From IMG/VR virus record IMGVR_UViG_2561511241_000005, positions 1 to 57,087 of that record: a stretch of 57,087 nt of DNA; one strand, 5' to 3'. Position numbers and translations under genes: made by a program. Below, one piece after another: positions 27,695-28,606 of the stretch; position 1 is the stretch's first letter; every line of letters starts with the position of its first letter. Origin of the DNA: a virus (lineage: Duplodnaviria; Heunggongvirae; Uroviricota; Caudoviricetes). Below the pieces are notes generated by a model that worked only from the letters and a program-made list of their open reading frames with translations, was not told the DNA's origin and searched no databases.

Positions 27695-27784
27695 ATGATT
27701 GCATCAATATTAACGTTTATAGGCGGTATGGCGGCTGGATTCATTCTTTGCGTGTTTTTGGTGGCTATGTCTATGCAGGATTGA
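27695..27784 (+). CDS. micro-ORF 1 of tandem array (29-aa hydrophobic peptide)
   Basis: MIASILTFIGGMAAGFILCVFLVAMSMQD; GGGGGT RBS. Confidence 0.35.
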   Translation: MIASILTFIGGMAAGFILCVFLVAMSMQD

Positions 27785-27786
27785 TT

Positions 27787-27882
27787 ATGGATGATTATAT
27801 CATTGCCGGATTGATCGGCATTTCTGTATTCCTGGTGTGTTTTATTATAGCTGTACTGATAACCGTAAAAAGCAAATCATGA
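27787..27882 (+). CDS. micro-ORF 2 (31-aa hydrophobic peptide)
   Basis: MDDYIIAGLIGISVFLVCFIIAVLITVKSKS. Confidence 0.35.
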   Translation: MDDYIIAGLIGISVFLVCFIIAVLITVKSKS

Positions 27883-27953
27883 ATGCCTACGATCTCATTT
27901 GGTTATTTGTGCTCATCATAGGTATTGGCGTGAACATTTACAGGCTATGGTGA
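27879..27953 (+). CDS. micro-ORF 3 (24-aa, MNAYDLIW family)
   Basis: MNAYDLIWLFVLIIGIGVNIYRLW; ATGA overlap with ORF 2. Confidence 0.35.
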   Translation: MNAYDLIWLFVLIIGIGVNIYRLW

Positions 27954-27957
27954 AAAT

Positions 27958-28032
27958 ATGATTGACCCGCTCATTATCCTTTCTGCCTGCGTCGCTGTAT
28001 GGCTGGCGATCATGATATTCATTGAAAGCTGA
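27958..28032 (+). CDS. micro-ORF 4 (24-aa hydrophobic peptide)
   Basis: MIDPLIILSACVAVWLAIMIFIES; GGTGA RBS. Confidence 0.35.
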   Translation: MIDPLIILSACVAVWLAIMIFIES

Positions 28033-28042
28033 AGGTATTCAC

Positions 28043-28117
28043 ATGAGTGTTTACGATCTCATCTGGTGGTCGTTGGTCGCCGTCATTATCTATTTCTGGT
28101 GGAAGAATGTTGTATAG
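28043..28117 (+). CDS. micro-ORF 5 (24-aa, paralog of ORF 3)
   Basis: MSVYDLIWWSLVAVIIYFWWKNVV; GAAGG RBS; shares tacgatctcatytgg with ORF 3. Confidence 0.35.
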   Translation: MSVYDLIWWSLVAVIIYFWWKNVV

Positions 28118-28125
28118 GTGACGGC

Positions 28126-28224
28126 ATGGATATATTCGAATTACTGGCGATTATGTGCGGCATGATGTTAGGCGTTGTCGCCATAATCATAATCATTGGT
28201 CTGGTTATGGGTAGCATCAAATGA
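28126..28224 (+). CDS. micro-ORF 6 (32-aa hydrophobic peptide)
   Basis: MDIFELLAIMCGMMLGVVAIIIIIGLVMGSIK; AGGTGA RBS. Confidence 0.35.
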   Translation: MDIFELLAIMCGMMLGVVAIIIIIGLVMGSIK

Positions 28225-28301
28225 ACGCATACGAAATGCTATTGCTGGTGGCTGTTATTACAGTAATTGCCGTTGATTTTTATCGAGGGTTAAAAAGATG
28301 A
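28221..28301 (+). CDS. micro-ORF 7 (26-aa, MNAY family)
   Basis: MNAYEMLLLVAVITVIAVDFYRGLKR; ATGA overlap with ORF 6. Confidence 0.35.
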   Translation: MNAYEMLLLVAVITVIAVDFYRGLKR

Positions 28302-28369
28302 GGGAAGCAGACTTCTTTTGCATGATTATAGTGATCGTCATCGTTGCGGTGCTTTTAAGCGTTAACTGA
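28298..28369 (+). CDS. micro-ORF 8 (23-aa hydrophobic peptide)
   Basis: MREADFFCMIIVIVIVAVLLSVN; ATGA overlap with ORF 7. Confidence 0.35.
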   Translation: MREADFFCMIIVIVIVAVLLSVN

Positions 28370-28385
28370 ATCGCAGGAGTTAAAA

Positions 28386-28454
28386 ATGAAATGGCTTGAT
28401 TTCTTTTTCCTGATTGTTGCTATTGTTCTTACCATGACCGCGCTAACTCAATAG
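28386..28454 (+). CDS. micro-ORF 9 (22-aa hydrophobic peptide)
   Basis: MKWLDFFFLIVAIVLTMTALTQ; AGGAG RBS. Confidence 0.4.
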   Translation: MKWLDFFFLIVAIVLTMTALTQ

Positions 28455-28513
28455 GTTATAGCTTGGACGCGCAATTTATGCGCTTCCTAAATTCAGCAAG
28501 TAAAGTAAAGGTG

Positions 28514-28606
28514 ATGGCAACAATGAAAGAATTATTCGACTGGTTGGAAGTATTAACATACTGTGCAAGTTTTGTTGCTTGCGTATATATCATCAATAAA
28601 TATTGA
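28514..28606 (+). CDS. micro-ORF 10 (30-aa peptide)
   Basis: MATMKELFDWLEVLTYCASFVACVYIINKY; AAAGG RBS. Confidence 0.35.
   Translation: MATMKELFDWLEVLTYCASFVACVYIINKY

Follow-up and report, generated by a model that had tools for sequence, protein, structure and literature searches.

Ten micro-genes for predicted single-helix membrane peptides form a hypervariable array between the lysis and terminase genes of an Escherichia coli prophage

The lysis cassettes of actinobacteriophages can carry up to four genes for holin-like transmembrane-domain (TMD) proteins, with one to four transmembrane (TM) helices (Pollenz et al. 2022, PMC9671378). These gene clusters are the nearest described kind to the array reported here, which occupies positions 27695-28606 of a 57,087-nt prophage sequence of Escherichia coli UMNK88 (100% match; IMG/VR record IMGVR_UViG_2561511241_000005). 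This whole stretch is called the window, and coordinates are positions in it unless a locus label (L006, L055 etc.) is given. The array consists of ten plus-strand open reading frames (micro-ORFs) that start with ATG and have 22-32 codons, in 0.9 kb. Both the actinophage clusters and the array hold differing small membrane-protein genes near an endolysin gene, poorly shared among related phages and mostly without assigned function. The actinophage genes lie inside the cassette, whereas the array and its counterparts consist of 3-13 single-helix genes downstream of a complete cassette, in fixed order and with presence/absence variation. The window prophage belongs, by sequence comparison, to the mEpimmI (mEp021-like) group of temperate coliphages (PMC11893012). 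A 2025 description of this group does not mention the array, and the 924 bp from UMNK88_RS08565 to RS08570, in which the micro-ORFs fall, carry no RefSeq annotation. An earlier reading of the sequence alone (the sequence-only reading) had likewise noted that its ORF track was empty here. It had proposed ten genes, coupled in translation and each encoding a hydrophobic single-pass peptide, in the interval from the lysis cassette to the terminase. In this study, we report that the ten micro-ORFs behave as genes and that they are one version of a cassette array that is hypervariable across the whole phage group, as its relatives indicate.

All ten micro-ORFs were present where they had been listed; only the start of the tenth was moved, from 28514 to 28523. 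The ten hydrophobic ORFs are tiled over 861 of 927 nt on the plus strand, and none was found on the minus strand. In 2000 dinucleotide-preserving shuffles, the commonest micro-ORF count was one and the maximum five. The array has a G+C content of 39.5%, compared with 48-50% for its neighbours, and T makes up 55% of codon position 2, a signature of hydrophobic coding. At 72 loci with a distantly related Sf6-type small terminase gene, terS (33-44% identical), the 1.6 kb upstream of terS held zero to two such ORFs, and the array as a general feature of Sf6-type terS phages was ruled out by its absence there. A chance origin of the array is excluded by the shuffle and strand controls, the T content at codon position 2, and the 72-locus control.

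For comparative analysis, loci were collected from seven sequenced phages, 46 IMG/VR contigs, and one more divergent metagenomic contig. The ratio of nonsynonymous to synonymous differences per site (pN/pS, Nei-Gojobori method) was 0.23 in the called frames when pooled, and 0.07-0.31 across all 15 families into which the micro-ORFs fall. The same array sequences shifted one or two bases out of frame gave 0.91 and 1.46. Codon positions 1, 2, and 3 had 127, 81, and 229 variable columns, respectively. The flanking genes had pN/pS values of 0.105 (terS) and 0.094 (the upstream gene for a 180-aa protein). pS was 0.27 in the array and 0.30-0.40 in the flanking genes, with no added nucleotide constraint seen. 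A DNA homology search, which was not ORF-based, found 455 of 468 homologous segments intact under a strict rule in the 53 related loci. The 13 non-intact segments are mostly length variants and include only about four independent disruptions, namely a start loss and a frameshift in family F, a stop loss in family I, and an ATG-to-ACG change in family H common to four loci. The frames are thus kept in the relatives, and the loss of frames that the sequence-only reading had named as a refuting outcome did not occur.

Translation signals agree with this pattern. The mean duplex energy with the anti-Shine-Dalgarno sequence was -6.6 kcal/mol at 448 micro-ORF starts and -2.7 kcal/mol for 884 further ATGs of these regions (p about 1e-97). 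Most junctions had stop-to-start distances of -8, -4, or +1 to +18 nt. The claim that each ORF has either a ribosome-binding site or an ATGA overlap held up, with strong Shine-Dalgarno (SD) sequences and tight stop-start geometry; the start at 27879 is an ATGA without an SD, and those at 28221 and 28298 also overlap the preceding stop. Judged by their substitution pattern, the micro-ORFs are shown to be protein-coding genes under purifying selection at the amino-acid level. Coding and hydropathy evidence together support the proposal of coupled genes for single-pass hydrophobic peptides.

In all the loci collected, the gap between the gene for the 180-aa protein and terS measures 321-1157 bp and is filled with 3-13 micro-ORFs; every mEpimmI relative has such genes at this place. 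The 53 loci hold 488 micro-ORFs of 22-47 aa in about 15 families. The order of the families is fixed: J or G, A1, (K), C1, A2, F, (N), I, C2, B1, B2, E, H, B3, C3, D. No violation of this order was seen, J and G being mutually exclusive in the first slot, while presence and absence vary freely, giving 38 architectures in the 53 loci. A related array was found in 35 of 5426 complete E. coli genomes. Three of the window peptides had been called paralogs, and this was borne out: C1, F, and C2 are of one MN-Y-D/E type, and a 26-nt repeat, 85% identical, lies at 27878 (C1 start) and 28042 (F start). B1, B2, B3, and H share an M(R/K)E(A/S)DF head. The alternation of two peptide types is real in the window (A1-C1, A2-F, I-C2), but these pairs are not inherited as units, as 39 of the 53 loci have A1 but no C1, 17 have A2 but no F, and 27 have C2 but no I. 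The proposed three or four copies of a two-peptide module are therefore an appearance of this window only. The cassettes vary independently except for E and H, the only pair that travels together (both in 33 loci, E only in four, H only in none).

Cassette junctions fall at AGGTGA-type SD sequences or at the common 5' codons of paralogs, for example where C2 is followed by B1, B2, or B3, and A2 by F or C2. This suggests that recombination at short SD and paralog repeats may add or remove whole cassettes. In the comparison with the divergent contig L055, cassettes A2, F, and D are 97-99% identical at the nucleotide level, whereas the peptidase gene (the gene for the 180-aa protein, see below) is 68%, terS 84%, and Rz 86% identical; A2 alone reaches 98.7% identity with a locus that matches at only 68% in its peptidase gene. 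Because A2, F, and D are near-identical where peptidase, terS, and Rz diverge, the alignments establish that cassettes have been exchanged between phage backbones. Two natural in-frame fusions were observed. In L039 (2230-), A1 is joined to A2 in a 60-aa two-helix product, and in L030 (2514-), I has no stop and reads on into its neighbour; fused forms would thus be tolerated at least transiently. HNH endonuclease genes were seen in L006 (mEp013; 2071-2556), between the peptidase gene and the array, and in the metagenomic relative L055 (2752-3273), between endolysin and Rz.

J is the only family found outside the mEpimmI group. About 90 virulent rV5-like myophages (Vequintavirus records) carry it as an isolated ORF, with 81-84% nucleotide identity by blastn, and the homology begins at the SD and stops at the ORF stop. 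In phage FV3 (JQ031132, 96606-96695; L054 2506-2595), the 96 bp from FV3_00129 to FV3_00130, left without annotation, are taken up by a J-family micro-ORF of 29 aa, MIASILTFMGGVAVGFIICLFIVIMSMRG. It sits among small genes downstream of nucleotide-metabolism genes, far from annotated lysis or packaging genes. A tblastn search of the concatenated peptides against phages returned only seven mEpimmI phages, and low-complexity masking probably hid the rV5-like J.

Among the first six to nine residues, 13 of the 15 families have one or two acidic ones, and an unbroken apolar stretch of 13-30 residues comes next. At the C end the net charge is zero or +1 to +4, with the exception of A2, whose last residue is a single Glu. 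C-terminal tails have 0-8 residues and a net charge of -1 to +2 in 14 of the 15 families; C3, which is absent from the window, is the only family with a basic 11-residue tail. Membrane insertion was estimated crudely as the sum of Hessa biological-hydrophobicity values in the best 17-residue window, and this sum was below zero for 6 of the 10 window peptides and 11 of the 15 families. Hydrophobic moments were 0.02-0.28, similar to those of YohP, KdpF, and AcrZ and far lower than the 0.44 of PSM-alpha3. GxxxG motifs occur in J, G, and I. Because of the low hydrophobic moments and the Hessa sums, the peptides are read as TM-like helices and not as amphipathic lytic peptides. By the positive-inside rule, most families would lie N-out, C-in in the inner membrane. 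A2 was considered as a lipoprotein (LSAC) and this was ruled out, given its acidic n-region, an h-region that is too short, and a -1 residue that varies to L and V.

Searches of Pfam, PHROGs, and PADLOC with the peptides gave no match at or above threshold. In Rfam, the sole match to 26800-28700 was an S15 leader below threshold (E 0.43), which was put down to chance. In a collection of 15 billion proteins, 3 of the 10 window peptides, those of at least 31 aa, were present as 'hypothetical protein', and the other seven were absent, being below the length limits of gene callers. Homologs of the 47-aa C3 family were found only at 70% identity or more, and E. coli was the only organism named. The A2 core pattern had no match in 100,044 species-representative genomes. 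No paper was found that describes the array or contains the peptide sequences. The statement that no phage system of this organisation has been described stands, since literature and family libraries gave none.

The cassettes and their neighbours are listed in Table 1. J has its SD (GGGGGTGA) within the 3' end of the peptidase gene, whose stop lies 2 nt before J. The array thus directly follows the peptidase gene and is coupled to it, a point that the sequence-only reading had not made; the hypervariability described above is also beyond it. A1 (45 instances) has a ratio of nonsynonymous to synonymous substitutions (dN/dS) of 0.18 and a Hessa sum of -4.7, and C1 (seven instances) a dN/dS of 0.10. 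All 49-50 instances of A2 are intact, and 2 of 36 homologous segments of F are disrupted. I has a dN/dS of 0.13. None of the 44-51 instances of C2 (dN/dS 0.22) or the 48-49 instances of B2 (dN/dS 0.10) is disrupted. D is the best conserved cassette, with 47-52 instances, none disrupted, and the lowest dN/dS of all (0.07); it is intact in all but one of the 53 loci. The start of D is most likely the in-frame ATG at 28523 (MKELFDW...), because this codon is conserved in relatives and has a well-spaced AAGGTG, whereas the ATG at 28514 abuts that motif. The stop codon of D falls within the SD of terS (TGAGAGGTGA). Together with the low dN/dS, this means that part of the constraint on D may come from coupling to terS. 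The spacer between B2 and D keeps a length class of 63-70 nt in loci without E-H, and in the window an in-frame upstream ATG in it yields MRFLNSASKVKV... fused to D. The spacer could be either a deletion scar or a functional element.

Table 1. Features of the array and its surroundings in the window
Feature	Position	Strand	Remarks
Class II holin	25720-25920	+	First gene of lysis cassette (ORF translations; RefSeq and phage annotations)
Endolysin	25922-26413	+	N-terminal SAR-like (signal-anchor-release-like) hydrophobic segment; Pfam Phage_lysozyme match
Rz	26401-26871	+	Pfam Phage_lysis match
Rz1 lipoprotein	about 26609-26803	+	Embedded in Rz; ORF translation
Terminator-like hairpin	27040-27078	+	GGAAACGG...CCGTTTCC and T-rich tail; separates lysis cassette from peptidase gene; read in sequence
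Probable zincin-like metallopeptidase gene	27150-27692	+	180 aa; directly precedes array
J	27695-27784	+	29 aa, MIASILTFIGGMAAGFILCVFLVAMSMQD; GxxxG motif; slot 1, alternative to family G
A1	27787-27882	+	31 aa, MDDYIIAGLIGISVFLVCFIIAVLITVKSKS; N end acidic, C end basic
C1	27879-27953	+	24 aa, MNAYDLIWLFVLIIGIGVNIYRLW; ATGA overlap with A1, no SD
A2	27958-28032	+	24 aa, MIDPLIILSACVAVWLAIMIFIES
F	28043-28117	+	24 aa, MSVYDLIWWSLVAVIIYFWWKNVV
I	28126-28224	+	32 aa, MDIFELLAIMCGMMLGVVAIIIIIGLVMGSIK; two GxxxG motifs
C2	28221-28301	+	26 aa, MNAYEMLLLVAVITVIAVDFYRGLKR; ATGA overlap with I
B1	28298-28369	+	23 aa, MREADFFCMIIVIVIVAVLLSVN; ATGA overlap with C2
B2	28386-28454	+	22 aa, MKWLDFFFLIVAIVLTMTALTQ; GCAGGAG just upstream
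Spacer	28455-28522	+	68 nt between B2 and D; site of cassettes E, H, B3, C3 in relatives
D	28523-28606	+	27 aa, MKELFDWLEVLTYCASFVACVYIINKY; always adjoins terS
terS	28617-29102	+	Small terminase subunit, Sf6 type; Pfam PF20901, E 1e-37; downstream boundary of array; terL next

The 180-aa protein upstream of the array had no sequence match in Pfam, NCBIfam, or the PDB. H79-E80-x-x-H83 and E106 are invariant in 18 homologs. In its AlphaFold 2 model (mean predicted local distance difference test score 76), a small sheet is accompanied by a helix with HExxH and a next one bearing the Glu (elements E21-25, E51-57, E63-69, H74-91, and H104-147), and the tail is disordered, acidic and then basic. 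A zincin core consists of an HExxH helix, a Glu ligand on the following helix, and a three-stranded sheet (Iyer et al., PMC5512222). Because the modelled elements and the invariant residues match this core, the protein is probably a stand-alone zincin-like metallopeptidase. The peptidase motif had no match in the 100,044 species-representative genomes.

The lysis cassette (25720-26871) is canonical and complete without the micro-genes. The hairpin behind it lies at the same place as an annotated rho-independent terminator in mEp021 and mEp013, and a simple terminator scan did not pick it up. A 31-aa ORF at 27055-27150 (+), MKRRFQCFIAVFTPCGVEFCGGYIFQNRRLF, overlaps this hairpin and runs up to the start of the peptidase gene. 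L056 has an identical copy, and in MagusPhagus the ORF is an annotated CDS; a gene and a by-product of the hairpin are both possible. A simple consensus scan of 25400-29200 on both strands found no sigma-70-like site, with 6.8 expected, and all non-nested ORFs of at least 90 aa from about 10 kb to 55 kb lie on the plus strand. Because the region has no promoter-like site and the ORFs are uniformly on the plus strand, the array most likely belongs to a long rightward late transcript with the lysis, packaging, and head genes. Terminator-like matches inside the array (27804 and 28064) were taken as chance, as five were found and 3.8 were expected. Elsewhere in the window, the gene after terL, UMNK88_RS08580 (30641-32035), carries the RefSeq name 'anti-CBASS protein Acb1 family protein'; its position is that of a portal gene, and the corresponding gene of a related contig matches Pfam Phage_portal_3, so the Acb1 name looks like an annotation artefact. 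In L055, the gene after the portal (8491-8534 onward) has Phage_Mu_F and Intein_splicing Pfam matches. The early region of the window holds two adjacent small hydrophobic ORFs at 12185-12298 and 12307-12429 (+), of 37 aa (MNLAKIAALLAAVAVAVLYLSVSLYITVAIIKLITNM) and 40 aa (MKVSKDIATVAFCVICFLFTVVFCGALAAVIGLIGKGGML), and a further one of 30 aa at 14157-14249 (+). These three may be additional unannotated micro-membrane genes.

The explanation we favour takes the cassette as the unit: an AGGTGA-type SD, an ATG, 22-32 codons, and a stop, packed head to tail, translationally coupled, and placed within an operon without a promoter of its own. Each product would be a single hydrophobic helix that inserts into the inner membrane and binds host inner-membrane proteins helix-to-helix, late in infection. 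The effect might be the shut-off of a transporter or a DNA-entry route, or of a membrane-bound defence or stress effector. Each phage would carry a changeable combination drawn from about 15 families, with cassettes gained, lost, and swapped via recombination at the repeated SD and paralogous 5' sequences. That the peptides are host-directed intramembrane modulators and individually dispensable accessory factors seems to us to have somewhat less than an even chance, and their targets and benefit are guesses. This reading is favoured because the set of cassettes differs greatly between loci, a trait of other accessory loci related to conflict, and because the lysis cassette is complete and set apart by the terminator-like hairpin and the peptidase gene. 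It is also favoured because J occurs in an unrelated virulent phage, at a distance from annotated lysis or packaging genes, where the shared element is the host. A bolder form of it is possible but doubtful. The array would then be a so far unrecognised kind of accessory locus in phages, a combinatorial library of cassettes bounded by SDs, in which each bare TM helix inhibits a different inner-membrane protein of the host or of a rival phage (candidates are a DNA-entry channel, a membrane defence effector, and a stress sensor), with arms-race swapping that includes virulent myophages.

Several points weigh against the favoured explanation. Anti-defence and host take-over genes are not usually expressed late, the main importance of D may lie in its coupling to the translation of terS, and the host-target argument rests on one family since J alone was found outside the group. 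Hessa sums were borderline (+1.5 to +2.6) for C1 (27879), F (28043), C2 (28221), and D (28523), which have short cores. The pN/pS set contains intact ORFs of the same length only, and pN is biased slightly downwards, while the frame-shift control is unaffected. The only proteomics on the mEpimmI group is that of virions, in which the array is not mentioned.

The main rival, which we consider unlikely, is that the peptides modify the pinholin/SAR-endolysin lysis clock by co-assembling in the membrane with the class II holin or the SAR endolysin anchor, which would bring triggering forward or hold it back, so that cassette number tunes lysis time. The array runs in the same direction as the lysis cassette and begins 0.8 kb downstream of it (0.8-1.7 kb over its length), and no promoter-like site lies in between. 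Single-TM peptides are the right kind of molecule, hydropathy and Hessa sums predict for them the TM domain that a holin needs, and actinophages place up to four holin-like TMD genes beside their endolysins (PMC9671378). However, the endolysin gene already has a recognisable holin gene ahead of it, and spanins, the hairpin, and an unrelated peptidase gene lie between it and the array. The highly charged hydrophilic C-terminal domain usual for holins is missing from the micro-peptides, J of the rV5-like phages is away from annotated lysis genes, and the cassettes are exchanged independently of the neighbouring Rz. We regard it as improbable that the peptides form one module with the zincin-like peptidase, as partners that anchor or regulate it or as substrates that it processes. 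Peptidase and array co-occur strictly and are translationally coupled in all 54 loci, and both are restricted to the mEpimmI group apart from J. Yet hardly any of the peptide sequence would lie outside the membrane, where it could be cleaved, the peptidase stays constant across loci whose cassette content varies freely, J is present without this peptidase in rV5-like phages, an HNH gene separates the two in mEp013, and the peptidase assignment itself is moderately supported.

Membrane-damaging toxins, released at lysis against competitors or acting on the host, are very improbable. The sequence-only reading had pointed to two-peptide bacteriocins and small membrane toxins, and neither likeness was supported. 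Type I toxins (ibs/sib, ldr/rdl, tisB, and hok) resemble the micro-peptides in being hydrophobic and of 19-50 aa (Ibs, TisB, and Ldr in particular), in some tandem loci, and in their frequent location on prophages. Unlike the array, in which ORFs abut or overlap with no promoter-like site on either strand and no room for antisense genes, each toxin comes with a promoter of its own, a structured leader, and an antisense RNA. Class IIb bacteriocins are paired small peptides with GxxxG helix packing, which the motifs in J, G, and I and the fixed E-H pair recall. They are cationic peptides of Gram-positive bacteria with a double-glycine leader, an ABC transporter/peptidase, and an immunity gene, and their two peptides are always passed on as a 1:1 pair, whereas neighbours other than E and H vary independently here. 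Here no GG cleavage motif was found, the peptides start at the 3-6-residue head of the TM helix and have a net charge of about zero or negative, with few or no cationic residues, and the locus neighbours are the zincin-like peptidase, terS, and terL, with no ABC transporter/C39 peptidase or immunity gene. In the staphylococcal psm-alpha operon, four micro-ORFs of about 21 aa follow one another, each served by its own ribosome-binding site and translated without a signal peptide, but phenol-soluble modulins (PSMs) are amphipathic and exported by a dedicated transporter, whereas the hydrophobic moment here is low. Moreover, ten depolarising toxins beside a depolarisation-triggered holin would presumably fire lysis too early. 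Least probable of the explanations considered is that the peptides are unimportant and the array is a ribosome relay from the peptidase to terS with Rho protection, or a T-rich DNA site for packaging or recombination. The position of the D stop and the near-constant presence of D fit this, as do the freely varying array length and the fact that T-rich sequence by itself gives hydrophobic ORFs (PMC11188072). It is opposed by amino-acid-level purifying selection in every family in the called frame only, by a pS close to that of the flanking genes, by the retention of J as an isolated ORF in another phage lineage, and by the shuffles of the same composition, which yielded at most five ORFs.

Ten selected genes in a stretch empty in RefSeq are a concrete and tractable example of a phage micro-proteome. 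The isolates that infect K-12 range from five cassettes (mEp021 and mEp515) to ten (mEp010 and mEp554) and form a natural deletion series, and the system could reveal how a phage benefits from bare TM helices. Should the peptides turn out to be specific inhibitors that act within the membrane, minimal tools against bacterial membrane proteins could be drawn from them, and they would form a new class of phage-host or phage-phage conflict genes. 'Intergenic' gaps beside terminase genes should be checked for micro-genes before they are read as pac, cos, or regulatory DNA.

Among known systems, the functional analogy we favour is with the superinfection-exclusion proteins T4 Imm, HK97 gp15, and P22 SieA, which are accessory and variable phage membrane proteins that act on entry routes at the host inner membrane. 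These are larger, encoded by single genes, and expressed early or from the prophage, whereas the array is probably expressed late. Outer-membrane exclusion in the mEpimmI group has already been assigned to Lpp lipoproteins (PMC11893012). The E. coli proteins AcrZ, MgtS, KdpF, and YohP (PMC12648545) have fewer than 50 aa, one TM helix, and similar hydropathy, were missed by annotation, and presumably act by binding a larger membrane protein. They are chromosomal and solitary with their own regulation, whereas the micro-genes are phage-borne, arrayed, and coupled, and share no sequence similarity with them. In size (22-47 aa), one predicted TM helix, and coding signature, the micro-peptides resemble small single-pass regulatory membrane proteins in general. 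The holin-like TMD proteins of actinophages are mostly much longer than these peptides. What is new here relative to all of these systems is a dense, ordered, hypervariable array of phage micro-genes for predicted small membrane proteins that standard annotation does not see.

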